Source: Syntrophales bacterium (GTDB taxonomy: Bacteria; Desulfobacterota; Syntrophia; Syntrophales; UBA2210). From it: a DNA stretch of 64,000 nt. A program made the translations under genes and the position numbers. Below the pieces are notes generated by a model. The model was not told the origin of the DNA and ran no database searches. It saw only the letters and a program-made list of their open reading frames with translations. The DNA is taken from contig CAXXKT010000001.1 in the NCBI GenBank assembly GCA_963662405.2, positions 2,208,001 to 2,272,000 of the forward strand, given 5' to 3'. This document shows positions 3,833-22,466 of the stretch, in pieces (the first letter of the stretch is position 1; each line of letters begins with the position of its first letter).

Positions 3833-3905
3833 GTTTAATCACTTCCGACGCACGGGATTACCTCCTTAATGTTTTTCCCGTGAATTGAAACGTAAGGAAG
3901 TGAAA

Positions 3906-4937
3906 ATGGGAACAACCATAAAACAAGGCACAGGTTTCAGGAATTTCAAATCCGGACGATTTGCTGGCGAATCCGGTACGCAGCCGAAACTACTCGATCG
4001 CCTGCGTCTTGCCATGCGCTCGCGGCATTACAGCAGACGAACGGAGCAGACTTACAGCTATTGGGTTAAGAAGTACATATATTTCCATAATGTGAGACAT
4101 CCCGATGAGATGGGGGAGAAAGAGATCAATGCGTTTCTGACCCACCTGGCGGTAGAGGAAAGGGTGAATGCTTCCACACAGAATCAGGCCCTGTGCGCGC
4201 TTCTGTTCCTTTATCGTCACGTTATTGGCCGCGAGATTGGCGATCTCGGTGATGTCATTCGGGCGAAAAAACCGGTTCGCCTGCCCGTTGTCATGACACG
4301 CGATGAAGTAAAAGCGGTGTTGGAAAACCTGACGGGAGACAAATGGTTGATAGTATGTCTCATGTACGGTGCGGGGCTGAGATTGATGGAATGTCTTCGT
4401 CTGAGGGTGCAGGATATTGATTTTCATTCAAACCAAATTACGGTCCGTGATGGCAAAGGAAATAAAGATCGTGTTACGATGTTTCCAGCTTCGGTGAAAA
4501 AGCCTCTTGCCGAACACCTGAACAACATTAAAACAGTTCATGATTCAGATATTGCCAATGGTTTTGGCCGAGTTGTGATGCCCGATGCCCTAGCCCGTAA
4601 ATACCCGAATGCGTCGAAAGAATGGCGTTGGCAGTGGCTATTCCCTCAAGGCAATTTATGGCACAACCAGCAAACCGGAGAACGAGGCCGACATCATATT
4701 CATGAATCTATTGTTCAAAAAACAGTAAAAGATGCCGTTACAAAAGCAGGGCTGGTGAAAAGGGCGACATGCCATACGTTCAGACACTCATTTGCTACGC
4801 ACCTGCTTGAAGACGGTTATGATATACGGACGGTTCAGGAACTTCTTGGACACAAGGATTTGAAAACAACGATGATCTATACCCATGTGCTCAATAAAGG
4901 GCTCGCAGCGGTCAGAAGCCCTGCCGACAACCTTTAG
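3906..4937 (+). CDS. intI: Integron integrase
   Basis: Tyrosine recombinase motifs ([23 protein letters not shown]...TMIYTH), N-terminal [14 protein letters not shown], and the IntI-specific insertion [24 protein letters not shown]; attC array downstream. Confidence 0.97.
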
Positions 4938-5037
4938 TATACCGGTTGGGATATTATATAGAGAGCTGGTCGGGCAAATTTGGACAGGTGCATAAGTGGG
5001 AAAGTTGCTCTATAGTGGACGTAAGGAGGAAAGAGAT

Positions 5038-5340
5038 ATGAGCAAGAGACCGCGGAGGAACCATGCACCGTCCTTCAAGGCGAAGGTGGCATTGGAGGCA
5101 CTGAAAGGGGACCAGACGATCGTTGAGCTTGCCGAGCGGTATCAGGTACACCCGAACCAGATCACCACATGGAAGAAGCAGTTGATGGATCACGCATCGG
5201 ACGTATTTGGCAAGGGTCATAAGGACAACCAGGGTCCGGATGTAAAAGAACTTCACGCCAAGATCGGACAGTTATCGATGGAGAATGATTTTTTATCACA
5301 TGCGCTCGGTCGCATCAACGGAACGAGCGCAAAGCGATGA
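5038..5340 (+). CDS. IS3 transposase OrfA (HTH)
   Basis: RRNHAPSFKAKVALEALKG...LHAKIGQLSMENDFL. Confidence 0.9.
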   Translation: MSKRPRRNHAPSFKAKVALEALKGDQTIVELAERYQVHPNQITTWKKQLMDHASDVFGKGHKDNQGPDVKELHAKIGQLSMENDFLSHALGRINGTSAKR

Positions 5341-6167
5341 TCAAGAGAGAAAAGAGTGTGCCCATAACCCGTCAATGCGAACTCTTGGAGCTGTCCCGAT
5401 CGAGTGTTTATTACTCTCCGGTTCCGGTCAGCGCGAAGGATCTGGAGCTGATGCGTCAGATTGATGAGATTCATCTTCAGTATCCCTTCTATGGGAGTCG
5501 GAAGATTCGCAATGAGCTGTGGCAGAGAGGGTATGATATCGGACGTGATAAGGTACGTCGGTTGATGCGTCGCATGGGGATCGAGGCGTTGTACATCAAG
5601 CCGAGATTATCGATAAAGCATCCCCAGCACCCGATATATCCGTATCTGTTACGGGGACTTGATATCATCCGTCCCAACCACGTATGGTCTGCCGATATCA
5701 CGTATATTCCCATGGAACGAGGGTTCTGTTATCTGGTAGCCGTTATGGACTGGGCGAGTCGGATGGTCCTCTCCTGGCGGTTGTCGAATACGTTGGACAG
5801 TGCGTTTTGTGTGGATGCGCTTGAAGAAGCACTCACCACGTATGGGCGCCCGGCTATCTTCAATACCGATCAGGGCAGTCAGTTTACCTCACAGGCATTC
5901 ATCGATGTCCTTCGCTCTCATGATATCTCTATCAGCATGGACGGTCAGGGGCGATGGATGGACAATGTCTTCATCGAACGGCTCTGGAAGAGCGTCAAGT
6001 ACGAAGATATCTATCTGAAGGCATACGGTTCAATGAAAGAGTTGAAGAAGGGGCTTACCGACTATTTTCAGTTCTACAACGAGAAACGGTGGCACAATAC
6101 TTTTGACAGAAAGACACCGGCTATGGTTTATTTTGAATCACTACCACAGGGACAGGCTGCGGCATGA
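5337..6167 (+). CDS. IS3 transposase OrfB (DDE)
   Basis: WSADITY, NTDQGSQFTS, DNVFIERLWKSVKYE; ATGA overlap with orfA. Confidence 0.93.
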   Translation: MIKREKSVPITRQCELLELSRSSVYYSPVPVSAKDLELMRQIDEIHLQYPFYGSRKIRNELWQRGYDIGRDKVRRLMRRMGIEALYIKPRLSIKHPQHPIYPYLLRGLDIIRPNHVWSADITYIPMERGFCYLVAVMDWASRMVLSWRLSNTLDSAFCVDALEEALTTYGRPAIFNTDQGSQFTSQAFIDVLRSHDISISMDGQGRWMDNVFIERLWKSVKYEDIYLKAYGSMKELKKGLTDYFQFYNEKRWHNTFDRKTPAMVYFESLPQGQAAA

Positions 6168-6366
6168 ACACAAACCCAGGGCAACTTCCCACTTATAAAT
6201 CCCTGTTACCTGTCCAAAGAAACCGGACCACCTCTTAGATCTGCATAACATCCCAACCGAGTGAAAGAAAAATGGGATGATAACGATTGAATGTTCAGTG
6301 ACTATGTCTAAAATGTAAGCTGTTTTCGAGGGGTGTTATGCCGCACTTTTTGCGGTGTTTGCGATA

Positions 6367-6397
6367 TTATACGAGATCCGTATAAACATTGTTCAGG
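6367..6397 (+). other. Probable attI site (crossover G|TT at 6391)
   Basis: TATAAAC-ATT-GTTCAGG precedes the first cassette; no attC stem upstream; palindrome TTATACGAGATCCGTATAA adjacent. Confidence 0.6.
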
Positions 6398-6530
6398 GGG
6401 CGCTCCACGATAAGACCGCTCCACACCCCCTGAACATGCGGCGGCTGCCCTGAGCTGGTTCGCTCGGCGCGCAGCGCCTCCCGAACCAGCGGATGGACTT
6501 GTCCCCTGCGGGGCAGGTCATCCGCCGCAT
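6391..6530 (+). repeat. 140-bp ORF-less mini-cassette, copy 1 (at attI)
   Basis: GTTCAGGGGG...CCCCCTGAAC-ATGCGGCGG...CCGCCGCAT|GTT; 1 nt different from copy 3. Confidence 0.95.
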
Positions 6531-6533
6531 GTT

Positions 6534-7562
6534 GTGTGCCATATTAATATTTTGGAGTTTACTGTGGGGCAATTAGAAAATTATTCAGATTTACAAGAAA
6601 AAAATAAGCAATTTTCTCGTAAACAGGAATTTTCAATCATTGATACTATAGAAGAATTTGATAAGTGGTATAAAACTCTTAAGGAGAGTTCTTCGAAAGT
6701 ATCTTCAAAATCAAAAATCTCATCGGTAAATACAAATAAAATGTACAGAGGGATGAGTGAGTCAAAATACAAATTACTTACTTCTTCTCAAAGATTTTGG
6801 ATTTTAAATGAACTGGAACAATGGTGGCGACCCAAAAGATATTTAGAATTTATAGAAACTTTCGTTGATAACGCACGGAAAAAGTTATTATTCAATAAAG
6901 TGTTCGAATACTACAAACTGAAGCCCAACCAAAGAGATTTCCCAATATTAAGTATACTTCAGCATTATGGTGCACCGACTCCACTAATGGATTGGAGTTA
7001 TAATGTAGATGTAGCTCTGTATTTTGCCACTGAAGGGGTAAAGCCTTCTTCATCCAAAGATATAGAACTTTATTTTTCGATTTACGAAATAGATAAAAAC
7101 AAACAAATTAAGAATGAATTTAACAACTTATTAAATTGGCATAAGGGCAGCTTTCCAAAAATAAGTTCATTTTTTGGTTGGGAAGATAATCAAAATTCAA
7201 TTTTTTATATATCAGATTTTGAGGACAAACCTGAAAATCCACGGAGCTTTGTTGATGAAAGACCTATAACGACCTTCTATAATCAGAATATTATACCTCA
7301 AGAAGGGCTTTTTATTTTCAACCCTTTTCCTAAGAAGCCTTTAGAGAATTGTTTTAATACTGATCATGACGCAGATGGAAATAACTTGGATTTAATACCT
7401 TTTAGTTGTTTTAATATTAATAAAGACTTATCTGAATATATAAGACGAAAAATTAAACTCAAAGGTATTGATAACGCATTTATTTATCCTGATTTGAGAG
7501 TTTATTGTAATGGATTGATCGAAGAATTTTTAGACCAAGCAGCCGAGGCACACAACAAATAA
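6534..7562 (+). CDS. FRG-domain protein (cassette; start may be the GTG at 6562)
   Basis: MYRG...LQHYGAPTPLMDWSYNVDVALYFA...QEGLF. Confidence 0.85.
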   Translation: MCHINILEFTVGQLENYSDLQEKNKQFSRKQEFSIIDTIEEFDKWYKTLKESSSKVSSKSKISSVNTNKMYRGMSESKYKLLTSSQRFWILNELEQWWRPKRYLEFIETFVDNARKKLLFNKVFEYYKLKPNQRDFPILSILQHYGAPTPLMDWSYNVDVALYFATEGVKPSSSKDIELYFSIYEIDKNKQIKNEFNNLLNWHKGSFPKISSFFGWEDNQNSIFYISDFEDKPENPRSFVDERPITTFYNQNIIPQEGLFIFNPFPKKPLENCFNTDHDADGNNLDLIPFSCFNINKDLSEYIRRKIKLKGIDNAFIYPDLRVYCNGLIEEFLDQAAEAHNK

Positions 7563-7631
7563 ATGCAGGGGACGCAAAAAGCCGCGCCCCTGATTTTAGC
7601 GTTCGATGTATGATGATTATGGGGGCTGATC

Positions 7632-8393
7632 ATGGGTTTTGACAAATCCGAAATAGCACAACTTCTTGCAGATTGTGGCCGAAGGTGTTGCATCTGCGGC
7701 AGATTGCACAAAGTCCAGGTTCATCACATTGTCCCGGGCGATGATGATATAAGCAATGGTATTCCTCTTTGCCCAAATTGTCATGATGAGGCCCACACTG
7801 AGTACTCTACAGGTAGAACAACTCGAACATATACGCATGAAGAATTGAAGCTTCATCGCAAGAGAACAATTGAACAAGTGAAGCGAGAAGCAAAGTGGAA
7901 ACCAGGTGGTGCTGATTGGCGCAAAGACAAAAAGTTGGTAGCGTTTTTCGCACAATGTTTAGATCGACCTGCTTTCCGTACATACTTCCATCAGGAACTT
8001 AGTTTTTCTGCGTTCGATCAAGCAATGGAAGACACTATTGTAGCCCTAAACACGGGATATTGGAAAATGAGGGATGGCACTTTGATTAAAAGAGCAGAAG
8101 GAAAAGCTTGTGTCGTCAATCCATTGTGGCGTGGAAAGCTTGAACAAATTACTAATCTCATCGAAGATGTTCGGCGAAAGTTTGCAGACCTATTTGGATT
8201 TAACGAAATGCTTTTCCATTTGCGTGGGCCACGCCATTTACACAATCAAGAGTTGGAAGCTTATATGGAAGGTTTTCGAGGAAATAGAGACCTTGGTCAA
8301 TGGATGGATAAGAAACGTCAGGAAGCAATTGACGTCATGAACTCGATTCTTGAAGAGGTAGGAATGCAACCTCTCCGAGGGCTTCGAGAGTAA
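7632..8393 (+). CDS. HNH endonuclease-domain protein (cassette)
   Basis: CCIC...VHHIVP...NGIPLCPNCHDEAH. Confidence 0.85.
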   Translation: MGFDKSEIAQLLADCGRRCCICGRLHKVQVHHIVPGDDDISNGIPLCPNCHDEAHTEYSTGRTTRTYTHEELKLHRKRTIEQVKREAKWKPGGADWRKDKKLVAFFAQCLDRPAFRTYFHQELSFSAFDQAMEDTIVALNTGYWKMRDGTLIKRAEGKACVVNPLWRGKLEQITNLIEDVRRKFADLFGFNEMLFHLRGPRHLHNQELEAYMEGFRGNRDLGQWMDKKRQEAIDVMNSILEEVGMQPLRGLRE

Positions 8394-8448
8394 AAAACAT
8401 CGAACAAATTAATCCAGCGGACGGCTTACAGCCGCCGCTGATCATTGC

Positions 8449-8588
8449 GTTCAGGGGGCGCTCCGCGATAAGACCGCTCCACACCCCCTGAACATGCGGC
8501 GGCTGCCCTGAGCTGGTTCGCTCGGCGCGCAGCGCCTCCCGAACCAGCGGATGGACTTGTCCCCTGCGGGGGAGGTCATCCGCCGCAT
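8449..8588 (+). repeat. 140-bp ORF-less mini-cassette, copy 2
   Basis: Near-identical to copies 1 and 3; begins at the GTT of the HNH cassette attC. Confidence 0.95.
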
Positions 8589-8632
8589 GTTCGGCTACAA
8601 AAAGGAGGAATGATAAAAAGTCTTCATGAGCT

Positions 8633-8790
8633 GTGAATTGGGATACACTGTTTGAAACTTTATAGTTTTGGGCAGCAAGGCTACTGTTCGACATGTTTAC
8701 TGGTCTTCGAGACCGCAAAGGAGAATGAAGAGCTGTAGCCGCAACATTCAATGATCTTCGAGATCGAATAGGAGATTGGGACCAATTCAC
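8633..8790 (+). ncRNA. Putative bridge/seek RNA of the IS110 element
   Basis: Closing stem GTGAATTGG/CCAATTCAC; two TTCGA-capped hairpins flanked by segments matching the target (AAAGGAG) and donor (CATTC, ATAGGAG). Confidence 0.7.
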
Positions 8791-8826
8791 CTGACAGGCG
8801 CTGTCCAAGATGTGAGGAGGCGTTCT

Positions 8827-9939
8827 ATGAAGATGAGTATCGGGGTTGACCTTCACAAGACGCAGTTTACCGTTTGTTGTTTGAGTGAAGATCGGAGTGT
8901 TCAGGAGTCGGGCATCTACCCGACGACTGATCGAGGTTACCGGGCATTTATCATGAAGGTGTCCAACTGGAATGAGGGCGGTTACGAGGTCACGGCAGCG
9001 GTGGAATCAACAGGGAACACCCGACACTTTCGCAACCGGTTTTTGAAGGCGGGGATTGAGGTCAAGATAGTGAACACCTTGAAATTCAAGGTTGTAAATG
9101 AGTCAGTAAAAAAGACTGACAAGCATGATTCCCGCACATTGGCTGAGTTTCTTGAGAAAGATATGCTTCCCGAGTCCATTCTTTGTTCGCAGGAAAGCGA
9201 GGACATTCGAAGGCTTCTCAAGTCACGTTCTGTTCTGGTGAAAGCTTTGGTATCCTTGAAAAACCAGATACACGGTTTATTGCTTGGATATGGGATAGAG
9301 AGTCGGCGGGGACAGCTGCAGAGCAAAAAAGAAAGGCAGCGAATCCTTGACGGTCTCGCGGACCATAGGAGTTACGGAAACGCTGCCCGAGCGGTAAAAC
9401 CGCTTCTTGGTACAATAGACCAAATTGCATCCGAGGTCAAAGGACTTGAGCGCGTATTATCTGATCTTGTTTCTGAAGACGAGGATGTTGCTCTGTTGCA
9501 AACGATTCCTGGCGTTGGAATAATAACAGCAGCGACGATTCGGGCTTATACCGATGACATCAACCGATATGAGAGCGCCAAGCAGTATGCTGCTCATGCC
9601 GGTTTGGTACCATGGGTTCAAAACTCCAACAAGACCATTCGCCATGGTCATATTACCAAGCGAGGCCCCGTGGAACTGAGGACGGCTTTTGTGCAAATGG
9701 TAATGGGGATGCTACGGCTTCGGAATAAAACCGATGGATATTGGCTTATGTACAAATACAAAGCCATGAAAGAGAACAAGGGAACCGGGAAGAGCGTAAT
9801 AGCGACGGCGCGAAAGATGAGCACTATTGTATATGCCATCTTGAAGAAGGGGGAGCCGTTTGATCCATCGAAAATGCTGCCAGACCCGAAATATGTAGAG
9901 ATGAGTAAGGTTGCGAGGTGTTATGCTTTGGCCGTTTAA
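8827..9939 (+). CDS. IS110-family DEDD recombinase/transposase
   Basis: IGVDLHK, VEST, KTDKHDS, TIPGVG, GLVP..QNS, GHITKRG. Confidence 0.95.
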   Translation: MKMSIGVDLHKTQFTVCCLSEDRSVQESGIYPTTDRGYRAFIMKVSNWNEGGYEVTAAVESTGNTRHFRNRFLKAGIEVKIVNTLKFKVVNESVKKTDKHDSRTLAEFLEKDMLPESILCSQESEDIRRLLKSRSVLVKALVSLKNQIHGLLLGYGIESRRGQLQSKKERQRILDGLADHRSYGNAARAVKPLLGTIDQIASEVKGLERVLSDLVSEDEDVALLQTIPGVGIITAATIRAYTDDINRYESAKQYAAHAGLVPWVQNSNKTIRHGHITKRGPVELRTAFVQMVMGMLRLRNKTDGYWLMYKYKAMKENKGTGKSVIATARKMSTIVYAILKKGEPFDPSKMLPDPKYVEMSKVARCYALAV

Positions 9940-10002
9940 ATTTTAACCATGGGCCTGTTTGACAGGCTCTCCATGAATTGACTTTTTATAGGAGTTAAAA
10001 AT

Positions 10003-10677
10003 ATGACAATAAGCGATGCACTAATGATAATAGCCGTTTTAGCTGCTCCTTTCCTAGCGGTTTTTGCACAAAGACAAATTGATTTATGGCGGGAACAAAG
10101 ACAAAGAAAATTATGGGTTTTTAAAACACTTATGGCCACACGTGGTCGAACTTTGTCTCCAGAGTATGTACAAGCTCTAAACATGATAGAACTTGAATTC
10201 CAAAAATCTTCTGAGAAACCTATCCGCGATGCATGGAAAGAGTACCATGATCATCTAAACTCTTATCCTCGTGAAGGTGAAAATCAGAAGGAGAGAGCTG
10301 CTGTGTGGGATGAAGCGTTGGCAAAACTGCTTGCTAATCTTCTTATTAAGATGAGTAAGGCTTTCTCATATGAGTTTGACGTAGTACAAATAAAGAAAGG
10401 GGCTTATTCACCTAAAGGTCATGCAACCACAGAAATCGAACTTCAGTTACTTAGGCGTTTTGCACTAGAATGGCTTGCTGGTGAAAGGAAGGTGTCTGTT
10501 TCAATAGTGCCTAAAGACGATGAGTCCGCTAAACAAGGTCAAGTATTTATGGCTGGTTTATCGGGCATTATCGAAGGCCAAAAACAAATAAAAGTTGAAT
10601 TGGTTTCTCAAATGGATGGTGATGACAAGCCGAACAATACTAATTCAGCCGACGCAAAAAGCCGCGCGGCTGATTAG
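10003..10677 (+). CDS. Hypothetical cassette protein with an N-terminal TM helix
   Basis: RBS AGGAG; hydrophobic N-terminus; FKTLMATR...VQALNMIELEF; stop lies inside attC. Confidence 0.8.
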   Translation: MTISDALMIIAVLAAPFLAVFAQRQIDLWREQRQRKLWVFKTLMATRGRTLSPEYVQALNMIELEFQKSSEKPIRDAWKEYHDHLNSYPREGENQKERAAVWDEALAKLLANLLIKMSKAFSYEFDVVQIKKGAYSPKGHATTEIELQLLRRFALEWLAGERKVSVSIVPKDDESAKQGQVFMAGLSGIIEGQKQIKVELVSQMDGDDKPNNTNSADAKSRAAD

Positions 10678-10681
10678 TGCC

Positions 10682-10821
10682 GTTCAGGGGGCGCTCCGCG
10701 ATAAGACCGCTCCACACCCCCTGAACATGCGGCGGCTGCCCTGAGCTGGTTCGCTCGGCGCGCAGCGCCTCCCGAACCAGCGGATGGACTTGTCCCCTGC
10801 GGGGCAGGTCATCCGCCGCAT
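10682..10821 (+). repeat. 140-bp ORF-less mini-cassette, copy 3
   Basis: Begins at an attC GTT and is followed by GTTATAGC. Confidence 0.95.
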
Positions 10822-10846
10822 GTTATAGCAATTTAATGATAAAAAT

Positions 10847-11998
10847 ATGGTAGATACGCAAAAATTAAATAGGTCATTAGATTTAATATTGAAAGATTTT
10901 ATTCCTGATGATGAAGCCAATCAACACTGGAGAGATCCGAATGCCGGTCACCTAGCAAATATCAAATTTGAAGATAAGCCTCCTCCGTATATTGTTTTTA
11001 TTATATTTGTATACTTAAAAAAGTACTCATTTGGAGGCCAATGGGAAAAAGTTAATTGGGAAATACCAATTAAGTATAAAAATGTACCCATGATGTTAGC
11101 ACATAAAAAATTTGGGTTCCAAATTCTAACATATTCTGGCGTACCTAAGGATAATCAAATAGCTATTGAAGCACTAAATAAAATAAAAAAAGCAATCCCA
11201 ATAGCAGAAAAACTAATTCAACCGACTATAAAAAGTCTCGTAGATTCTGGAAAAATCACTATTTCAAACGATTATTATCAGCTTCGATCACGCTATGAAT
11301 ATTTTAGAAATGAAGCCGAGTCTCATTTATTAAACAATGAAAAAGAAGACTTTGATTTCAGTTCCTTTCAAGACCACTTAACCGCACTTAATTCTTGGTT
11401 ACAGCAAAAAAATAAAGGCGCCAATTATGCTTTTGCCATGATTGATTCATACTTTAGTCTGCTTGAGCACGTATTAGTATTGATAAAACCTTTCATCACG
11501 ATTTCTGAAACTGAAACTGAATTATCAAAATTTGTAGGACAATACTGGGGTGATAAATATAAAAAACTCTTTGATATAACAAAGGGTGGTCTTCCAAAAG
11601 TTCATTATGATGCGCTTTACGAAGTAAAAGAACGTTATCGGAACATCGCATCACATGGTAATTTTGAAAAAGGTGGTGGTTCGTTTTTAGTCCATATGCC
11701 ACACATAGGTGCGATTCCAATGTCACTAACCCAAAATAAATCACATTTTACTTTTTCAACGCCAAATGAACTTGAATTTGCAGCAATATGTAGTGTTTTT
11801 GATAGTTTTGATAACTTTCTTGATAGTGCCAGTATGACAAAATATGGGATGTTGTATATTAAGAGTGGCAATCATGTCATATTTGATGATGATACAAAAA
11901 GCACCTATTTAAATGCGATGAAATCTGAAAAAGATTTCAATGAATTTATTGAGTATATGGAGCAGCAATTTAATGATGCTTTAAATATGGATTGGTAA
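10847..11998 (+). CDS. Hypothetical cassette protein with a HEPN-like RxxxxH motif
   Basis: 383-aa AT-rich ORF bounded by GTTATAGC/GCTATAAC; RNIASH in a helical context. Confidence 0.75.
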   Translation: MVDTQKLNRSLDLILKDFIPDDEANQHWRDPNAGHLANIKFEDKPPPYIVFIIFVYLKKYSFGGQWEKVNWEIPIKYKNVPMMLAHKKFGFQILTYSGVPKDNQIAIEALNKIKKAIPIAEKLIQPTIKSLVDSGKITISNDYYQLRSRYEYFRNEAESHLLNNEKEDFDFSSFQDHLTALNSWLQQKNKGANYAFAMIDSYFSLLEHVLVLIKPFITISETETELSKFVGQYWGDKYKKLFDITKGGLPKVHYDALYEVKERYRNIASHGNFEKGGGSFLVHMPHIGAIPMSLTQNKSHFTFSTPNELEFAAICSVFDSFDNFLDSASMTKYGMLYIKSGNHVIFDDDTKSTYLNAMKSEKDFNEFIEYMEQQFNDALNMDW

Positions 11999-12157
11999 AG
12001 CTATAACAAATAATTCAACTCGGAATGTCTAAAAGCGCTTTCGCGCTTCTAGACATCCGGTTAATTATGCTGTTAGCAATGAAAAAGCAGAGTATTTTGA
12101 GGTTGTTTTTGCATAATAATAGTTTAACAGATTAATTCCATTTTTTCGGAGAGTTAA

Positions 12158-12487
12158 ATGAAGTGGATACTTTTATCAATTGCTATATTGTCAGAACTTG
12201 GTGGTTCAACATGTATGAAGTTATCAAATGGATTCACCAATATTCCAGCTTCAATTATGACATTTGTCTTTTGGGCTATCTCATTTAGTATTTTCATATT
12301 TGCGCTTAAACACTTTGACTTAAGCTTTATTTATGCTCTTTGGGCCGGCGTTGGAATTTTATTGGTATCAGTAATTGGTATGACCTATTTCAAAGAACCA
12401 GTAAACGTAATGAAGGTTATTTCAATTCTTATCATTGTTGTAGGTGTTGTGATGCTCAACTTGAGCGAAATTTTAACAAATCAATAG
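12158..12487 (+). CDS. SMR-family small multidrug efflux protein (cassette)
   Basis: 109 aa, four TM segments, W..L.IAI.SE, KLSNGF, YALWAGVG. Confidence 0.92.
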   Translation: MKWILLSIAILSELGGSTCMKLSNGFTNIPASIMTFVFWAISFSIFIFALKHFDLSFIYALWAGVGILLVSVIGMTYFKEPVNVMKVISILIIVVGVVMLNLSEILTNQ

Positions 12488-12624
12488 ATTAAAAGATTGC
12501 TAACAAAGCCATTAAGGCGGACCGCAATCGCACTCGGTACGGGCAAGTACACCTTTCATGGCAAACAAGTTGTTAACTCAAAATAGGTGCAGCGGCTGCT
12601 TATGGCCAGAGTTAGCGATGAAAT

Positions 12625-13164
12625 ATGAAATATGTTAATTCAAAGATGGTTGATATTTCAGAAGTAGTAATTCGGGAGTTAAAAAATGAAGAATTTTGGA
12701 TTCTTGAAGAATTACTATATGAGGCGATCTTTCAACCTGATATTCCGAATCCAATTCCACGCGGTATAATTGATACCCCAGAAGTTAGAGTATATATTAA
12801 GGATTTTGGACAAAAAGAAGATGATTATTGTCTAGTAGCTGGTATAAATGAACAAATTTTGGGAGGTGTTTGGGTTCGAGTATTAGCTGGTGACATCAAA
12901 GGATTTGGTAACATAGATAGTGAAACTCCTGAATTCGCGATATCAGTTTTCAAAGAATTTCAAAATCAAGGAATTGGCAAGCTTCTCATGCGGGAGATGA
13001 TCTACTACTTGATTAATAAAAAATACAGTCAAGCGTCTCTGAGTGTTCAAAAAGAGAATTATGCGGTCAAGATGTACAAAGAGTTTGGATTTAAGATATT
13101 AACTGAAAAAGGTGAAGATTATTTAATGATACTGAAATTAGTAAACAATCCAAGGAATAAATAA
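12625..13164 (+). CDS. GNAT acetyltransferase (cassette)
   Basis: V.KEFQNQGIGK, N.AVKMYKEFGF. Confidence 0.9.
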   Translation: MKYVNSKMVDISEVVIRELKNEEFWILEELLYEAIFQPDIPNPIPRGIIDTPEVRVYIKDFGQKEDDYCLVAGINEQILGGVWVRVLAGDIKGFGNIDSETPEFAISVFKEFQNQGIGKLLMREMIYYLINKKYSQASLSVQKENYAVKMYKEFGFKILTEKGEDYLMILKLVNNPRNK

Positions 13165-13260
13165 GAATCCGCTAACAAAAGGCTGAAGTCCGACCATGCC
13201 CGCCAAAAAGCAGCGACCATGGCGGCTTAGCCACGTGTTGGGCTACAAAAAGGAAATAAT

Positions 13261-13977
13261 ATGAAAACCATTTTTTCAGCAATCGTGCTTGTCTTGCTTG
13301 TCTCTATACCAGCATTGGCAACTGATATTAAATTGCCACACATAGTTGTATATGGAACAGCAGTATTGGAAATCACCCCCGATGAAATGCTTTGGGCCCT
13401 TAATGTTACAAATAAGGCTTCTAACGTAGAAGAGGTGGCAGAGCAGCATTCTGAAATAGTACAATCTGTTATCATTTTTCTTGGCAAGGCCAATATTGAC
13501 ATTGATGATATTCAAACTTCCAGAATGCAGTTCGGTGAAAATTGGGGATACAAGAACAACTCAAGGGTAAGAGAAGGCTATTTTGCTTCTACCCAAATCT
13601 CTTTCAAGTTAACCGTCTTTGACAAATATAAAAGTCTTTGGTCAGGCTTAGCAAATATAAAAAATGTATCTATCCAAAATGTGGATTATGACCACTCCAA
13701 ACGAATTGAATTCCAAAATAAAACAAGGCTCAAAGCCTTATTAGCCGCGAAAGAAAAAGCAATCACGATGGCAAATACTTTGAACACTTCCATTGCAGAG
13801 CCATTGTTAATCGAAGAAGATTTATCATTCGATAAAAACCCTATGAACCAGAATATTCTAATGGTTAATAAAGCAAGTTCAAGGGCTGAACCGCAAAGTC
13901 TCGGAGGTTCATTTGCTCTTGGTAAAATACCAATTCGAGCAAGAGTTAAAGTTGCCTATCGGCTAATTAATCAATGA
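13261..13977 (+). CDS. SIMPL/DUF541-like periplasmic protein (cassette)
   Basis: Signal peptide; I.V.GTA...I.PD, DIQTS, ALLAAKEKA..MA. Confidence 0.8.
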   Translation: MKTIFSAIVLVLLVSIPALATDIKLPHIVVYGTAVLEITPDEMLWALNVTNKASNVEEVAEQHSEIVQSVIIFLGKANIDIDDIQTSRMQFGENWGYKNNSRVREGYFASTQISFKLTVFDKYKSLWSGLANIKNVSIQNVDYDHSKRIEFQNKTRLKALLAAKEKAITMANTLNTSIAEPLLIEEDLSFDKNPMNQNILMVNKASSRAEPQSLGGSFALGKIPIRARVKVAYRLINQ

Positions 13978-14054
13978 TAAAAGCCCAACAAAATTTTCAA
14001 CCCGCCTTTCCCCGCAGCTCGTTCCTCGCTCTGGGAAAAGCGGGTTAAACAGGC

Positions 14055-14194
14055 GTTCAGGGGACGCTCCGCGATGAGATCGCTCCACGCCCCCTGAACA
14101 TGCGGCGGCTGCCCTGAGCTGGTTCGCTCGGCGCACAGCGCCTCCCGAACCAGCGGATGGACTTGTCCCCTGCGGGGCAGGTCATCCGCCGCAT
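14055..14194 (+). repeat. 140-bp ORF-less mini-cassette, copy 4
   Basis: Five substitutions relative to copy 3. Confidence 0.95.
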
Positions 14195-14913
14195 GTTAGG
14201 GCTTAAGAAAAAATGTCACAATTATCCTACGCACGAATAATGCTGGAGCAAATGGGGATACCATTTGAGGATATTCCAACATCAGATGAAAAAATGAAAA
14301 AGGAGGCGGATTTTCTAGCAAGTTTTGGTGATTCCAGAGTGCTTATCGAAGAAAAACTAAAAGAGGACGATCTGAGCTATCTTTCAGTTAGAGGACAGGA
14401 ATTAGAGGCTGGAGGAATCCATGAGCATTCTGTTCCACTGACACGAGATGAGACTATTTCGGGCATAATAAGGCATGCTGCGAAACAACTCAAGTCCTCA
14501 TCAGACAAGCCACATGATTTTCGATTATTGTGGTTTACTGCAACCGGCGTAGCAGCCGAGGCCAAAAGTGAACAGTTCATGGCAACACTTTATGGCCGAA
14601 CAAATATCATAGAGCGCGGCGCTAATGGCTACAAAAGGTGTTACTATTTCCGATATAGTGACTTTTATCGACGTTCAGCAATAATAGATGGTGCAGTAGC
14701 TGCATTCGTGGAGGATGCTTCCATTACTTTGAAACTCTGCTTGAATTCTTTATCCCCGAGATATTTAAACTTAAAACACTCAAGTGTTGTTAAACCTTTC
14801 AGGACTGCTGTTGAAGATCCCTTGGAACTTGAAACCAGAGGGAGTGCTTTTATATTAGATAACGATATTGATCGAAAAGACGAACAGAAACTGCTTGAGT
14901 ATCTAAAAAATAA

Positions 14914-15649
14914 GGGTCTTGACTAGAACAGCACACGGAAATATGTTAAGAGTCTAGTCATGTCAATAAGTAACAAGTATGTAAAAAATTCCAAAATTTC
15001 AGAGGCAAAATTTAGAGAGATCGTGAAGTATTTTGCCTTCGATTTGGATGCTCAAACCATCGCTCTTTTAACAAAACTCAATAGAAATACGGTGAATCGA
15101 TATCTGTCTTTGATTCGTCAACGTATAGCTGATCTGTGCGAAGAAGAATCACCATTTCAGGGTGAAATCGAGGTTGACGAATCATATTTCGGTGCAAAAC
15201 GTATCAAAGGGAAACGAGGCCGTGGGGCCGGGAGAAAAACCCCTGTATTCGGTATCCTGCAACGAAAAGGCAGTGTCTATACCGAAATCGTTCCCGATTG
15301 CGCCAGGAAGACTCTCCAGGCCATTATCAGGGGCAAAGTTGAACCGAATAGTGTCATACATTCAGATAGTTGGAGAGGCTATGATGGTTTGGTTGACTTG
15401 GGATACAAAAAGCATTACCGTGTTCATCACGGAGCCAATGAATTTGCCAGGGGGAAAAGCCACATCAATGGCATTGAATCCTTCTGGTCATTCGCAAAAC
15501 GGAGGCTGATGAAGTTCCATGGTATTCCACAATCAACCTTTTACCTGCATCTCAAGGAATGTGAGTTCCGGTTCAACAACCGTAACACCGATATCTATAA
15601 ATTGTTGTTAAAGAACTTCAAAAATAAACCGCTGTTCTAGTCAAGACCC
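14914..15649 (+). mobile_element. IS1595-family element, copy 1 (736 bp)
   Basis: 19-bp perfect IRs GGGTCTTGACTAGAACAGC; 8-bp TSD AAAAATAA. Confidence 0.95.
14960..15640 (+). CDS. IS1595-family transposase
   Basis: EVDESYFG, HSDSWRGY, HINGIESFWS, HLKECEFRFN. Confidence 0.95.
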   Translation: MSISNKYVKNSKISEAKFREIVKYFAFDLDAQTIALLTKLNRNTVNRYLSLIRQRIADLCEEESPFQGEIEVDESYFGAKRIKGKRGRGAGRKTPVFGILQRKGSVYTEIVPDCARKTLQAIIRGKVEPNSVIHSDSWRGYDGLVDLGYKKHYRVHHGANEFARGKSHINGIESFWSFAKRRLMKFHGIPQSTFYLHLKECEFRFNNRNTDIYKLLLKNFKNKPLF

Positions 15650-15818
15650 AAAAATAAATATAAAACTGAGCCCTTAATGACAATTGACCTCGGCTACACG
15701 AGTGCTTCAATACTATTGCCGGAGGGTGAGCCCTAACCTTTTGCTTCACCGGATTCGGGCCAAAAAGCGGGCCTCTACGGTGAGCAATGCGTTATAACTA
15801 TGAGATGCGAGAAGTGAA

Positions 15819-16085
15819 CTACGATAGATTTCTGTAAATATCTTTTCGGTGGCCAATTTTGACGACCAAAATGACAAGGATATCATCTTGGATTTCATAA
15901 ACGATCCGATAATCTCCAACCCGAACTTTATGAAAAGGGTTGTTTCCCTTCATTTTTGTCGTTTCGGGGCTTGGAAGATTTTCTGCAAAGCTATCAATCT
16001 TCTCAACTATTCGCACTCTGTCAACTTTTGGAATCTTCTTAAGGGTTTTCGCAGCGGAATTCTTAATCTCAATTCGGTAGCTCAA
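15819..16085 (-). CDS. RelE/ParE-family toxin (inverted TA cassette)
   Basis: KVRVGDYRIVYEI.D..LVILVVKIGHRKDIY. Confidence 0.92.
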   Translation of the reverse strand: MSYRIEIKNSAAKTLKKIPKVDRVRIVEKIDSFAENLPSPETTKMKGNNPFHKVRVGDYRIVYEIQDDILVILVVKIGHRKDIYRNLS

Positions 16086-16333
16086 AGTTCAAGCTCCTTT
16101 TTAAACTCCTCCCAAGGTATTGGGTCGCCGGGTTCATTTTTGGCTTTCCAGGTATCTTCAATATCAATCTGTTCTTCTAACTCTTGTAACAATTTGAGTT
16201 CTTTTATTGATACTATTGCAGCTAATGGTTCGCCACGGCGTGTCAGAACAAATGATTCATTTCCAAAGGCTACTCGATTTAAAATATTAGAGAATTTTTT
16301 TCTGGCATCTGCGGTCGTTATTTTGTTAAGCAT
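16082..16333 (-). CDS. Phd/YefM-family antitoxin
   Basis: TADARKKFSNILNRV...VLTRRGEPLAAIVS; overlaps the toxin start. Confidence 0.9.
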   Translation of the reverse strand: MLNKITTADARKKFSNILNRVAFGNESFVLTRRGEPLAAIVSIKELKLLQELEEQIDIEDTWKAKNEPGDPIPWEEFKKELEL

Positions 16334-16552
16334 AACTTTGCTCCAATTGTTTGTTTTGTACACCAAGTACAGATGGTACCACATTCGATCGGTTTGTCAA
16401 CAAATTCTATTTAATATAATAATAATCGGTTATAACATCACCATTCACAAAGGACTCGCAGGGGCGGACCGCCTTAGTTTTAGCATATTTTAGTGTTGAA
16501 CTCTCATTTGCGAAGTCCGATAACCCTGCTCGCCTGTGATGGTGGGCGTTAA

Positions 16553-17011
16553 ATGGAAAAAATGATAGAATTTAACGAAATCTCTCCAGACTTGGTTCCT
16601 CAAAAACTGTTACTAGAAGCGGATCCATCAATTGAACGAGTAAATCAATATTTGGAAGGCTCATTATGTTATGCGGCTGTAATTCAGAAAGAAATAGTTG
16701 GAGTCTGTGTTTTAAATTCCATAGACAAAAACAGAATTGAGTTATTCAATATCGCTGTCTTACCGGAAAACCAGAAATCAGGTATTGGGTCACAATTACT
16801 CCAATTTGTTCTGGACAGTGTTAGAGAGAAAAATTTTGAATCAGTGGAATTAGGGACTGGTACGTTTGGTTATCAATTGACATTTTATCAACGTTTTGGA
16901 TTTCGAGCGGACTCAATACTCAAAGACCATTTCATCAACAATTATGATGAACCAATTTTTGAAAATGGTATCCAGCTTAAAGACATGTTACGACTTATTT
17001 TGAAGCTGTGA
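16553..17011 (+). CDS. GNAT acetyltransferase (cassette)
   Basis: LLLEADPS, NIAV...QKSGIG, FYQRFGF. Confidence 0.9.
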   Translation: MEKMIEFNEISPDLVPQKLLLEADPSIERVNQYLEGSLCYAAVIQKEIVGVCVLNSIDKNRIELFNIAVLPENQKSGIGSQLLQFVLDSVREKNFESVELGTGTFGYQLTFYQRFGFRADSILKDHFINNYDEPIFENGIQLKDMLRLILKL

Positions 17012-17072
17012 TAAGAACCATTTAACAAATGCGCTTTCAGCCGACGCAAAAACCTCGCGGCTGAAACGGGAC

Positions 17073-17211
17073 GTTCAGGGGACGCTCCGCGATAAGACCG
17101 TTCACGCCCCCTGAACATGCGGCGGCTGCCCTGAGCTGGTTCGGTTGGCGCGTAGCGCCTCCCGAACCAGCGGATTGACTTGTTCCTTTTGGGGTAGGTC
17201 ATCCGCCGCAT
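17073..17211 (+). repeat. ORF-less mini-cassette, copy 5 (139 bp)
   Basis: About a dozen changes relative to copy 3; outer arms intact. Confidence 0.93.
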
Positions 17212-17235
17212 GTTCAGGGTTACAAGGAGAGAATA

Positions 17236-17676
17236 ATGAAAATTTCAAGAGTTACAATACTAACGCTTGGCGTAGCCGATTTGGGTAAAGCGACAGAATT
17301 TTATGAGGCTGTACTTGGCATCCCTCCAAACAAATCTTTTGATGGAATCACTTTCATTGAGCTTCCAGGAACATGGATTGCTCTTTATCCTCTTGAAAAA
17401 CTTGCAGAAGATATTTCACCTGATGTTTCTGTTACTCGCAATGGGTTTAGTGGAGTTACGCTTGCCCACAACGCCGGAAGCAAGGAGGAGGTTTTAGAAA
17501 TTGTGCGGCGCGCGGAGTCAGCAGGTGCTAGGATTGTTAAGGAGCCTAAAGATACTGGATGGGGTGGTTTCAGTGGATACTTTGCCGACATTGATGGCTA
17601 TTACTGGGAGGTAGCTTGGGGACCAATGTTTGAGTTCACAGAAAATGGCGAAATGACATTTAAAAGAAAACCATAA
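17236..17676 (+). CDS. VOC/glyoxalase-family protein (cassette)
   Basis: LTLGVADL.KA.EFY, TLAHN, WGGFSGYFADIDGYYWEVAW. Confidence 0.92.
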   Translation: MKISRVTILTLGVADLGKATEFYEAVLGIPPNKSFDGITFIELPGTWIALYPLEKLAEDISPDVSVTRNGFSGVTLAHNAGSKEEVLEIVRRAESAGARIVKEPKDTGWGGFSGYFADIDGYYWEVAWGPMFEFTENGEMTFKRKP

Positions 17677-17771
17677 CAACTGGCTCAACAGCGGACTTGC
17701 CCAAAACGCTTGCGCGTTTTCAGCCAGCCGGTTAGGCGGAGCGTTGGGTCCAGAAGAAGAGGAATACAGAC

Positions 17772-18908
17772 ATGCGCACATTTCTCCAATCACTTGTCGT
17801 TGTTTTGCTGCTTTCAACATCCGCCTGTGCCATGGAGCCTGCCACACCGGAACTGGACAAGACGTTTGATGGCCAGTCCAGTGACCTTGAATCAACAGCT
17901 ATTGTGCCGACTCTCGATGCGGAGATTGCCGATGGACAGAATGCCGTGTGGTGTTCGTCATTCCTCACTGCATGGAAATCACTAGCCACAAACATTGTGA
18001 GAGCTGATATCTCCCTTGAAGGTTCGCCGCAGACAGCGGTCGCCCTAAACAATGCAGATGACCCGACACCTCACAATCCAGAAGGATCAACATATGTCGC
18101 GACCGGTTGGAACAACAAAGGCGTACTTGAGAAGATCCGAAAGGAACTCAAGGTTGCCTTCCCAGGCAAACCAGCTCCCACTTTCCCGGATATCATGCCT
18201 GACTCCTTCGTCGCATACTCATACCTTGAAGCGAACGTGAAGTTCGACCTTCCTTACTTCCAGAACCGCAAGCCTCTGGAGTTCACCGATTCGCAAGGAG
18301 AAAAGACGAAGCTCACATCGTTCGGCATCCGGCCGGAGGATGACTACGCTTACTATAAGCTTCGGAGTCAACCACGTATTCTGTTTCGCAAGGGTGGTCC
18401 AGGTGAAGAAGTTGAGTTGGAGTTCGCGATAGACCTTTGTGCCGCATCCTCGCCGAGCCAGGTAGTAGTTGCGCGGATCAAACGAGAACCCACCCTAGCC
18501 AAGGCGCTTGACCGAATTAGAAAGGAACTGAAGGGATTCGAGAAACTGAAACAGAAGAATCCAGACTATACGAAGTATCTGGAGAATATCGGGCCCAATG
18601 ATGTCCTCTTGGTTCCTGATCTCTTCTGGGAGATTTCCCATCATTTGTCCAACCTTGAAGGCAAGCAATTCCTGAACGATCCTCTGAAGGGACAGCGTCT
18701 CGATGTAGCTCAGCAAGACATCCTCTTCCGTCTGGATCGCAGTGGAGCAGAGCTGAAATCTGAATCGAAGATGTTCTGTGCCCCCATCCCTACATACTTC
18801 GTGCTCGATCGTCCTTTCCTAATCTACATGAAGAACCGGAATGCAGAAGAGCCGTACTTTACCATGTGGGTCGATAACGCAGAATTACTAACGCCATGGA
18901 CGAAGTGA
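17772..18908 (+). CDS. Secreted or lipoprotein hypothetical protein with a serpin-like C-terminus (cassette)
   Basis: Signal peptide ending TSAC; FRLDRSGAE...FVLDRPFLIYM. Confidence 0.65.
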   Translation: MRTFLQSLVVVLLLSTSACAMEPATPELDKTFDGQSSDLESTAIVPTLDAEIADGQNAVWCSSFLTAWKSLATNIVRADISLEGSPQTAVALNNADDPTPHNPEGSTYVATGWNNKGVLEKIRKELKVAFPGKPAPTFPDIMPDSFVAYSYLEANVKFDLPYFQNRKPLEFTDSQGEKTKLTSFGIRPEDDYAYYKLRSQPRILFRKGGPGEEVELEFAIDLCAASSPSQVVVARIKREPTLAKALDRIRKELKGFEKLKQKNPDYTKYLENIGPNDVLLVPDLFWEISHHLSNLEGKQFLNDPLKGQRLDVAQQDILFRLDRSGAELKSESKMFCAPIPTYFVLDRPFLIYMKNRNAEEPYFTMWVDNAELLTPWTK

Positions 18909-18995
18909 GAAGACAGGATCCAACCAGAAAATGCAGAGTATTGTCGCGTCGCCGCGCCAAACCCTGGTTTTGATCGTTCGATTTTCAGAGATACT

Positions 18996-19053
18996 TGTAC
19001 AACTTACTGTACAATTTACTGGACAAATCATTTTTTACTCTCTATACTTGTAC
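18996..19053 (+). promoter_or_regulatory. Likely YefM-type operator repeats
   Basis: TGTACA at 18996 and 19008, TGTAC at 19049; TGTACA is the known E. coli yefM operator core. Confidence 0.55.
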
Positions 19054-19082
19054 GGTAAACAGAACAACTGTGGAGGATAAAA

Positions 19083-19337
19083 ATGAGAGTCATAAATTTT
19101 AGTGAAGCAAGAAATAAACTGAAAGCAATATTAGATCAAGTTAACGATGATGCTGACTACACCGTAATTACGCGAAGAGACGCTGAAGACGCAGTAGTAA
19201 TGTCCTTGGATACTTTCAACAGTTATCTTGAAACATTTCATCTTTTAAAATCTCCTGCCAACGCTGAGCATCTTGCGAAATCTATCGCTCAATATAAAAA
19301 TGGTGAAGCAACTGAAAGAGAAATGATCAATGAATAA
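19083..19337 (+). CDS. yefM: YefM antitoxin
   Basis: FSEARNKLKAILDQV..D...ITRR...VVMSL...ETFHLLKSPANA.HL. Confidence 0.93.
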   Translation: MRVINFSEARNKLKAILDQVNDDADYTVITRRDAEDAVVMSLDTFNSYLETFHLLKSPANAEHLAKSIAQYKNGEATEREMINE

Positions 19338-19593
19338 AGGACTCGCGTGGACTGATGAAGCCTGGAAAGACTACATCTATTGGCAAACTCAAGACAAAAA
19401 AACATTCACGCGTATCAATAGGCTCCTTGATGACATTAAACGAAATAACCCATTTAAAGGTATCGGAAAACCGGAACCTCTAAAAGAAAACCTGAGCGGA
19501 TTGTGGTCCAGAAGGATTGATGATACAAATCGTTTAGTCTCTGCAGTCGATGAAGTATATATTACCGTTATTTCTTGTAGATATCATTATTAA
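19330..19593 (+). CDS. yoeB: YoeB/Txe toxin
   Basis: AWKDYIYWQTQDKK, GIGKPEPLK, WSRRI, C-terminal RYHY. Confidence 0.95.
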   Translation: MNKGLAWTDEAWKDYIYWQTQDKKTFTRINRLLDDIKRNNPFKGIGKPEPLKENLSGLWSRRIDDTNRLVSAVDEVYITVISCRYHY

Positions 19594-19668
19594 AATCGAA
19601 CAATTTGCTACAGGCGACAGCGTAAAAACCACGCTGCCTCTGAGCAACACGTTTGGCAGTAAGATTAT

Positions 19669-20214
19669 ATGAAGATAAGAAATGCATCCGATATTGATAA
19701 GCGAGATATCTCAAGATTGCATATTTTATCAATCAAGAGACTGTGTAGCAAACACTATACCCTTGAGCAGTTGAACGCCTGGACAAGTATTCTTACTCCT
19801 TCTGTTTATGATCAGGCACTCGAAGAAAAGATATTTTTAGTTGCCCATGATTCAAACCAGGATTTAATGGGCTTGGGCATTCTTGATATCCAAAATTCTG
19901 AAATCAGCGCAATCTATATCCACCCAGATGCTGCGGGAAATGGAATTGGGACAGAAATTCTTTGCAAACTTGAAGCAATAGCTCGAAATCATAATGCCGT
20001 TCAAATTACCGTTCATTCCACATTAAATGCAAAAGGCTTTTATCAGAGGCATGGCTATTTCGATCATGGTTTGACCTTTCACCGTTTGCCGAACGGATCA
20101 AAGCTTGAGTGTGTACGAATGTTTAAAGATTTACAAACGGATGTCGAACAACGGGAAAAAGCAGCCGCGCCTCATGCCTGGCGTTCTGCGGCGACGGACA
20201 AGTCGGAGGAATAA
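19669..20214 (+). CDS. GNAT acetyltransferase, reading through a damaged attC
   Basis: IYIHPDAAGNGIG, STLNAKGFYQRHGY. Confidence 0.85.
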   Translation: MKIRNASDIDKRDISRLHILSIKRLCSKHYTLEQLNAWTSILTPSVYDQALEEKIFLVAHDSNQDLMGLGILDIQNSEISAIYIHPDAAGNGIGTEILCKLEAIARNHNAVQITVHSTLNAKGFYQRHGYFDHGLTFHRLPNGSKLECVRMFKDLQTDVEQREKAAAPHAWRSAATDKSEE

Positions 20215-20220
20215 GCTCTT

Positions 20221-20811: not shown

Positions 20812-20889
20812 CGTCGGTGGGTGTTCACGTCGGCGATAAAAATATGCCAAACAGGAATTTATTGAAAGAAACATCGAAGATGAAGTCAA

Positions 20890-21651: not shown

Positions 21652-21949
21652 AAGGAAAGACACCTACGCTAAGCCCGCCGCAAGCAGCGAGGAATGCGCT
21701 CGCTGTTCAATGCACAGCCGAAAGGAAGCATGTATGCGCCCCTATCGATAGAGGAACAATTCGGACCAGATCCGAGCACGGTAGAGCGCACTTCTAACCA
21801 ATCAATTCAGGTGACGGGAAGGGGCTGCGGGGCTCTAATGAGGGAAACACATTGATCCGCGCCTGATATCAGACGTTCGCTATAAAAACATTCTTTGACG
21901 CTGTGATGTTATAGTGCTATAGTCACACAACGTCAGGGGAGGTGATATT

Positions 21950-22427: not shown

Positions 22428-22466
22428 AGCGAACCTGTCACAAGGGCCGCTCCGGCTCAGCTCGTC

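Follow-up and report, generated by a model that had tools for sequence, protein, structure and literature searches.

The window analysed here, a 64,000-nt stretch of the Syntrophales bacterium assembly GCA_963662405.2 (contig CAXXKT010000001.1, positions 2,208,001 to 2,272,000 of the forward strand), contains a 1387-bp element of the IS110 family of insertion sequences. The element occupies positions 8608-9994, with the Shine-Dalgarno (SD) sequence AAAGGAG directly before it and the ATG of the downstream gene (10003) after it. Bridge and seek RNAs are already well established, and this element is very probably an active, RNA-guided member of the family whose upstream end encodes a two-loop bridge (seek) RNA with one loop aimed at the SD. 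The upstream non-coding end folds into such an RNA, with helices that are supported by covariation. Three of the four guide strands of the RNA covary with their DNA, and there is a weaker signal for the fourth, the 5' strand of the target loop. A first-pass annotation of this DNA had proposed that a bridge RNA could be read in the 5' non-coding end; helix covariation and guide/DNA covariation agree in bearing this out, and the positions that had been given for the stem, loops, hairpins, junctions and ATG were all recovered exactly. The parts of the element and of its immediate flanks are as follows.

8601-8607, plus strand: left target AAAGGAG, the original SD of the downstream gene, matched 7/7 by the 3' strand of the target loop
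8606-8607, plus strand: left copy of the presumed core, AG, the last two bases of the left target
8613-8622, plus strand: left subterminal inverted repeat ATAAAAAGTC, 10 nt, 100% complementary to 9980-9989
8614-8619, plus strand: -10-like TAAAAA within the left repeat, with TG at 8611-8612 just before it
8633-8641, plus strand: 5' strand of the long-range stem, which pairs with 8782-8790 and encloses the RNA
8648-8675, plus strand: 5' stem-loop (67% paired; 9/12 pairs with double changes)
8679-8740, plus strand: target-binding loop, with an outer stem formed by 8679-8689 and 8730-8740
8692-8701, plus strand: 5' guide strand of the target loop, CATGTTTACT (with ATGTTTACT at 8693-8701)
8702-8714, plus strand: hairpin of the target loop, GGTCTTCGAGACC
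8716-8723, plus strand: 3' guide strand of the target loop, (C)AAAGGAG (with AAAGGAG at 8717-8723)
8745-8774, plus strand: donor-binding loop, with CATTC at 8745-8749, a hairpin at 8753-8765 and ATAGGAG at 8768-8774
8753-8765, plus strand: hairpin of the donor loop, GATCTTCGAGATC (helix 95% paired)
8827-9939, plus strand: DEDD transposase/recombinase gene, 370 aa plus stop, with the SD GAGGAG at 8814-8819
9978-9994, plus strand: right end TTGACTTTTTATAGGAG, with -35-like TTGACT at 9978-9983, the right repeat at 9980-9989 and ATAGGAG at 9988-9994
9995-10677, plus strand: right target, consisting of the 8-nt spacer TTAAAAAT, and the downstream cassette gene (DUF6680, 224 aa, ATG at 10003)

The bridge RNA lies within the 219 nt of the non-coding left end (8608-8826). 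Here the long-range stem encloses the 5' stem-loop, the target loop, which is held between GGCTAC (8679-8684) and its pairing partner GTAGCC (8735-8740), and the donor loop; in both loops a hairpin of the form GNTCT-TCG-AGANC separates the two single strands. The helices were scored in an alignment of 25 distinct relatives, with slid partners as the control. Across the 41 proposed pairs 85.1% of cells are paired, compared with 26-48% when the partners are slid, and 23 pairs have changed on both sides. The long-range stem contributes 9 of these pairs, 6 of them changed on both sides, with 88.5% of its cells paired. A permissive-threshold search of 8300-10300 against Rfam returned two chance-level hits only, and no family was matched. 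The AATGA that follows AAAGGAG (8724-8728) equals the left end minus one G and was considered as a handshake guide. This candidate was rejected, because relatives with the left ends GCACGA or GCATGA keep AATGA unchanged, which makes it a conserved linker and no guide.

The 3' arm of the 5' stem-loop (8666-8675) can instead pair with 8801-8810, just upstream of the transposase SD. This alternative helix is paired in 76.4% of cells (33-56% when slid), with 7/10 pairs double-changed among the 25 relatives, and thus pairs better than the 5' stem-loop (76.4% versus 67%). Because it crosses the stem 8633-8641/8782-8790, it would have to form as a pseudoknot or as an alternative conformer, and it might switch the transcript between its roles as guide RNA and as mRNA. 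In addition, the target-loop hairpin and guide (8701-8722) and a segment inside the transposase gene (9344-9365) make up a 22-nt inverted repeat, 82% complementary, which is perhaps due to chance.

The left junction reads AAAAGGAG/GAATGA at 8607/8608, and the right junction reads TTTTTATAGGAG/TTAAAAATATG at 9994/9995. Host sequence to the left of the element ends in CTACAAAAAGGAG, while host sequence to its right is TTAAAAATATG, which bears the ATG at 10003. The only bases common to both junctions are AGGAG, found in target and donor alike, and consequently the single copy in the window does not show where in these 5 nt the crossover falls; the 2-nt core is likely to be the conserved AG (CT on the opposite strand). 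The limits 8608-9994 include the right AG copy of the core; by the IS1111 convention they become 8606-9992. The target is not duplicated beyond the shared core, and the extreme ends of the element carry no terminal inverted repeats. Among relatives the right end, ...TATAGGAG, is nearly invariant, and the whole non-coding right end is 55 nt (9940-9994). Its ATAGGAG (9988-9994) provides a new SD for the downstream gene, as far from the ATG as the displaced one was, in agreement with the earlier proposal that AGGAG, present at both junctions, is regenerated there.

Two relatives, L012 and L078, end in ATAGGGG instead of ATAGGAG; the target-loop strand of L078 also has GGGG, and the left junction of L012 still has GGAG. 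These ends may be the trace of a core mismatch that was resolved either way. A short hairpin, GCCTGT...ACAGGC at 9950-9968, stands just 5' of the conserved right end GGTTGACTTTTTATAGGAG. It is present in most relatives, varies in sequence among them, and could be a terminator of the transposase gene or a recognition feature.

The transposase hits the Pfam families DEDD_Tnp_IS110 (PF01548, E 8e-19) and Transposase_20 (PF02371, E 3e-20); it also scores 228.9 bits with NCBIfam NF033542, 'IS110 family RNA-guided transposase', for which the cut-off is 140. Over its C-terminal domain it is similar to the solved IS621 and ISCro4 recombinases (E 1e-18), and residues D8, E60, D98 and D101 are invariant in 12/12 relatives. 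The other strand of the element has short open reading frames (ORFs) only, of up to 114 aa.

Insight into what the loops read comes from 146 related loci in genomes and metagenomes. The genome-contig set has 77 loci (the degenerate copy L077 was dropped and L041 was merged into L035), with 25 families permuted; its labels are Desulfobacterales, Spirochaetia, Treponema, Leptospira, Lentisphaeria, Dysgonamonadaceae, Dehalococcoidales, Clostridia and others. The metagenome set was fetched after the hypothesis had been formed and has 80 loci, 78 with the RNA region and 69 with a complete left end parsed. Guide columns were taken from alignments anchored on the window element. In the genome set, 85/102 cells at positions -7 to -6 of the left flank agree with the 3' strand of the target loop, compared with 48.4 after permutation (0/10000 permutations). 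In the metagenome set, it matches the left flank in 470/532 cells across all families (371.6 permuted; 0/10000) and, in the SD-type families at -8 to -6, in 89/136 cells (64.0 permuted; 0/10000). The covariation therefore runs in the same direction in both sets. A sub-clade whose guide is not an SD sits at matching non-SD repeats: such guides (CACGGAG, CGCAAAG, CGCAGAG, GGGGAG) are seen in 19 metagenome guide families, and their flanks follow in 136/150 cells (110.3 permuted; 0/10000). As judged from these sequences, this is natural reprogramming, that is, retargeting, of the RNA.

The loci of this sub-clade, all on metagenome contigs, are L111, L118, L121, L128, L135-L138, L149, L151, L154, L158 and L160-L164. 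The words at which they sit, CACGGAG, CACAGAG, GCGCAGAG and GCGCAAAG, occur in tandem, with inverted copies nearby, in the manner of repetitive extragenic palindromic (REP) sequences; in L121, a second element copy begins 8 nt past the first.

The donor loop corresponds to the element's own ends. CATTC (8745-8749) is the complement of the first five bases of the element, GAATG, and ATAGGAG (8768-8774) is identical to its last seven. Among 16 distinct guide/end pairs, with the ends GAATG, GCATG, GCACG, GTACG, GAGTG and GAACG, the donor 5' strand changes along with the element's first five bases (69/80 cells complementary versus 56.6 permuted; 0/10000), and the donor 3' strand equals the right end. 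In the predicted circle junction, which has one copy of the core, TTGACT stands 17 nt from TGATAAAAA (TGnTAAAAA). Boxes of the -35 and -10 type that are split between the right and left ends are described for the IS110 family, and by analogy the circle junction of the present element would form a promoter split between its ends.

The host genome (3 contigs, 3.80 Mb) was searched for other copies. There are nine over the exact 1387 bp, eight at 100% identity and one at 99.93% (a single mismatch), and the element is on this sequence evidence a real, active and multi-copy one. The sequence (A/T)AAGGAG stands directly left of all nine copies, in keeping with the 7/7 match of the AAAGGAG guide to the left target noted at the outset, while their right flanks differ. 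In seven of the nine, an ATG or TTG lies 5-8 nt past GGAG and opens an ORF of 71-239 aa in the direction of the transposase. All copies have one orientation relative to the SD, and in each insertion counted the transposase gene and the downstream ORF run in the same direction. The genome also has 910 unoccupied AAAGGAG sites, of which 215 (24%) precede an ATG with an ORF of at least 60 codons. The difference between 7/9 and 24% (binomial p 9e-4) makes a random choice among AAAGGAG heptamers unlikely. At a flgB-like gene that carries the element in the host, the orthologues in three same-genus genomes have an unbroken GAGGAG or AAGGAG 7 nt before the ATG and thus serve as an analogue of the empty site. 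No solo ends, tandem copies or junction-like sequences were found in the host genome beyond the nine copies. In three DNA-type sequencing runs, contigs break at 8600-8603 and at 9994/9995 and the depth inside the element is about six-fold higher; no joints were found in these runs, which says nothing either way on the RNA, on a circle or on empty sites.

In the genome set of relatives, a start codon with an open frame is likewise found 3-10 nt past the right junction in 55/66 cases. Taken together, these comparisons give good support to the idea that the guide RNA targets the SD. They are also the comparison with further copies and homologues that had been suggested for this element: insertions lie in SD-ATG regions, and in each of two independent sets the flanks and the guide strands covary.

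In one Spirochaetia chromosome (L013-L028), several of the 15 insertions lie behind a shared sequence of 40-45 nt, which has a hairpin such as CCCGCATCCATGCGGG, a T-run and then the SD; it resembles a repeated leader or a terminator and precedes unrelated genes. The distance from AGGAG to ATG is exactly 6 nt in 12/15 of these insertions. Many of the left flanks resemble the element's own right end, TTTTTATAGGAG, and were considered as element remnants. This was rejected: identity anchored at the right extends over 14 nt at most, and the flanks consist of a hairpin with a T-run.

The 5' strand of the target loop probably reads the spacer and the start codon, although we hold this less firmly than the SD contact. 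The strand begins with CAT in 64/66 SD-type guide pairs and in 0/20 non-SD pairs. In the non-SD elements, these positions are complementary to the right flank, and the register in which they pair would place CAT across from an ATG that lies 6 nt past AGGAG. Among the SD-type insertions, the SD-ATG spacing is 6 nt in 41/77 and 5 or 7 nt in 26 more, while the AGGAG-ATG contexts of the host genome have 6 nt in 188/1165. When the register is taken from the non-SD relatives, the 5' strand matches positions R1-R6 in 98/234 cells of the metagenome set, compared with 75.4 after permutation (2/10000). When matches are anchored on the ATG in the genome set, the score is 117/235 versus 90.1 permuted (2/5000), and shuffles within each guide that preserve composition reach it in 0/5000; with both sets together, within-guide shuffles reach the observed score in 1/5000. 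Finally, occupied sites in the host genome match the 5' strand better than free SD sites do (2.57/5 versus 1.5/5, p 0.008). The ideal target had originally been written as SD-spacer-ATG with a spacing of N5. The SD half of that target stands. Its spacing is uncertain by 1 nt, with both the non-SD relatives and the modal spacing favouring AGGAG-N6-ATG, and its start-codon half is less secure, given the small margin over controls and the one unreplicated test described below.

Several points weigh against such a reading of the start codon, and some of them bear on the SD contact as well. The right flanks are poorly conserved, and they match the 5' strand at about 42-50% versus 32-40% in controls; in the window copy the match of the first segment to the right target is 6/9, a figure given correctly in the first-pass annotation, and weak. 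The ATG-anchored result was not reproduced in the metagenome set (63/173 versus 55.7; 448/5000 permutations), where within-guide shuffles reach the score in 1385/5000. Core-anchored tests of the 5' strand in the genome set are marginal (188-318/5000); in the register that had first been proposed, the core-anchored match was non-significant (318/5000) and that register was dropped. The register, which varies by 1 nt from one non-SD insertion to another, was chosen after some of the same non-SD loci had been seen, about twenty variants of the 5'-strand test were run, and the background for spacing is drawn from one genome only. Two of the nine genomic copies have no credible gene behind them, and the start-codon test failed at 11/66 right junctions in the genome set and at 10/39 in the metagenome set, some of these being contig ends. 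Part of the SD-ATG enrichment could stem from purifying selection that removes intragenic insertions. Lastly, the permutation tests treat related elements in related hosts as independent, and significance is thereby overstated.

These points give some room to an alternative in which the RNA reads the SD half-site only (7-9 nt including the core) and the 5' strand is idle, the link to start codons coming from where AAGGAG is placed in genomes and from the loss of harmful intragenic insertions. The unconserved right flanks of the nine copies, the two copies with no gene behind and the unreplicated ATG-anchored test are what such a process would leave. There is also a precedent, reported in a preprint on IS621: a match across the core and one arm suffices for recombination in a cell-free system. 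The same result makes it plausible that a strict SD arm is combined with a loose second arm. An idle 5' strand, however, would not be expected to carry CAT in 64/66 SD-type pairs and in none of the 20 retargeted pairs, whose same positions complement the right flank instead; nor would it account for the concentration of spacings at 6 nt, for the better match of occupied than of free sites in the host genome, or for the result of 2/10000 in the core-anchored test on the independent set. Moreover, with copies that are 99.9-100% identical, selection has had little time to purge tolerated intragenic insertions. We consider this alternative unlikely, if worth keeping in mind, and favour a 5' strand that reads the spacer and start codon.

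It might also be supposed that the recombinase protein itself recognises AGGAG or initiation regions, the AGGAG words of the non-coding end being decoy or regulatory ribosome-binding sites (RBS). AGGAG is indeed invariant in most relatives, with covariation in the SD-type families visible at -6 to -8 only, and both loops carry AGGAGA-N-TG. But relatives in which the 3' strand is CACGGAG, CGCAAAG, CGCAGAG, GGGGAG or TTGAGAG sit at flanks that have changed in the same way, including inside 'GGAG'; the donor-loop strands track changes in the element ends; and the guide positions flank a hairpin inside a stem, as they do in the solved IS621 RNA. Natural retargeting in 19 guide families in effect excludes recognition of AGGAG by protein alone, and we give this idea very little credence. 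Even less credible is the notion that the similarity of loops and flanks is a by-product of A/T-rich ends with RBS-like words, or a product of chance or alignment: the guides are short, the 5' strand and spacers are both of low complexity, and the guide columns depend on the window element, but the composition-keeping shuffles (0/5000 and 1/5000), the slid-partner helix controls and the replication on loci fetched after the hypothesis was formed all speak against it.

How an RNA-guided insertion at the SD would proceed can then be outlined. The donor loop would hold the joined ends of the excised circle, ...TATAGG-AG-GAATG..., and the DEDD recombinase would exchange strands at the AG/CT core that donor and target share. 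The element would then land directly past AGGAG in the same direction as the gene, and its right end would bring in a fresh ATAGGAG, as far from the start codon as the displaced SD had been. By analogy with IS621, ISEc11 and ISEc21, the RNA would be made from the circle-junction promoter and would bind the recombinase, and recombination would occur at the core. The regenerated SD should keep the host gene translated.

If insertions thereby remain silent in translation, as we suggest below with somewhat less than even confidence, the element could persist in front of genes, operon genes included, in hosts labelled Desulfobacterota, Spirochaetota, Lentisphaerota, Bacteroidota and others, and the same scaffold would have been naturally re-aimed at the REP-like CACGGAG/CGCAGAG repeats. 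A guide RNA that spells the SD offers an explanation, at the level of sequence, for the old finding that certain members of the IS110 family insert between RBS and start codon, and the combination of a guide to a motif that precedes hundreds of genes with an end that restores the motif would be a distinct strategy for a mobile element. The large natural series of guides and targets, which includes clear retargeting, can show how much of each arm a bridge recombinase needs. The flgB-like case shows an insertion within an operon, and the window copy one within an integron cassette; such insertions separate genes from their promoters and so matter for annotation.

The cassette into which the window copy has inserted belongs to a repeated array. 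The feature that closes the preceding cassette is the following.

8448-8591, plus strand: attC-like repeat, 144 nt; the element lies outside it

The element begins 16 nt past this repeat, in the leader of the cassette gene. The repeat has six copies 2-5 kb apart (6390, 8448, 10681, 14054, 17071 and 22466), which are GC-rich and divide AT-richer cassette genes (FRG domain, HNH, DUF6680 and others) over 6390-22609. A tyrosine recombinase (Phage_integrase plus Phage_int_SAM_4) lies at 3885-4937 on the same strand as the cassettes, and an IS3-type rve ORF lies between it and the cassettes at 5337-6167. From its sequence, the array 3885-22609 looks like a chromosomal integron.

Among known systems, the element shares with IS621 and ISEc21 a DEDD recombinase with the same two Pfam domains, an RNA upstream of the gene with a long left end (219 nt here) and a short right end (55 nt here), a CT core in target and donor (AG on the gene strand here) and -35/-10 boxes split between the right and left ends. 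It also has two internal loops that each run stem, guide, hairpin, guide, as solved for IS621. It differs from both in that the guides come in the opposite order. The strand that equals the left flank follows the hairpin here, on its 3' side, and the one complementary to the right flank precedes it on the 5' side; the gene cargo is consequently inverted relative to the crossover site. The long specificity arm is the 3' strand here, and the subterminal repeats are 10 bp long, whereas IS110-group elements have none or 2-3 bp.

These last features recall the IS1111 group (ISEc11, IS4321/IS5075). According to published descriptions, that group has perfect or near-perfect subterminal repeats with extensions of 7 nt on the left and 3 nt on the right, and the same order of guides, the top-strand complement being 5' of the bottom-strand complement. 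With the AG core counted on the left, the extensions of the present element are AGGAATG (8606-8612) and AGG (9990-9992). The IS4321 copy L087, used as a control, has 12-bp repeats at 823-834 and 2128-2139, and its downstream non-coding region holds a 9-nt complement of the right flank, which upholds this reading of the guide order. In the IS1111 group, however, the RNA lies downstream of the transposase, where the present element has 55 nt only; ISMtsp17 is described as an exception whose non-coding region is upstream. In the present element the repeat has 10 bp rather than the usual 11-13, and the target is an SD-ATG region rather than attC, Tn21 ends or the like. In a pairwise comparison with one reference, the transposase is 27% identical to an IS4321-family transposase over 289 aa, with the C-terminal 80 aa unaligned. 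The original assignment to IS110 thus stands at the level of the ISfinder family and for the upstream RNA, whereas the repeats, the 7- and 3-nt extensions and the guide order are of the IS1111 type. This mixture bears on the relationship of the two groups. We suggest, tentatively and with somewhat less than even confidence, that the element represents a third RNA-guided DEDD architecture, with IS1111-type ends and polarity and the RNA upstream, which would recognise a two-part target (a strict SD plus a spacer and ATG with about 1 nt of slack), replace the SD and make insertions translationally silent.

The closest precedent for the target is IS900 of Mycobacterium avium subsp. paratuberculosis, which, reportedly by the title of a 1997 paper by Doran et al., 'targets translation initiation signals'. 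Both elements are directed at translation initiation regions, with a nearly identical word on the CAT...CTCCTT strand. The motif given for IS900, CATGNNNNNNTCTCCTT, is CATGN6TCTCCTT, the reverse complement of AAGGAGA-N6-CATG (PMC8141618), and AAGGAG(A)-N6-(C)ATG is what is met here. The IS900 motif is written in the orientation of the element itself, and the transposase opposes the targeted gene, whereas here it is co-directional. IS900 further differs in having a second ORF (hed) on its other strand, which is said to use host signals, while the right end of the present element supplies a new AGGAG. Searches of the literature on SD or RBS targeting, with supplements partly covered, turned up no account of such targeting by a bridge or seek RNA, IS900 included, nor of the present lineage; the passages of the PMC11208160 supplements that were covered have loop sets of the IS621 type, none of them SD-type, which as a partial view is no evidence of absence. 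RBS targeting is thus already known in the family through IS900, and what is new is a widespread co-directional lineage with a right end that regenerates AGGAG and an upstream RNA combined with subterminal repeats and a guide order of the IS1111 type.

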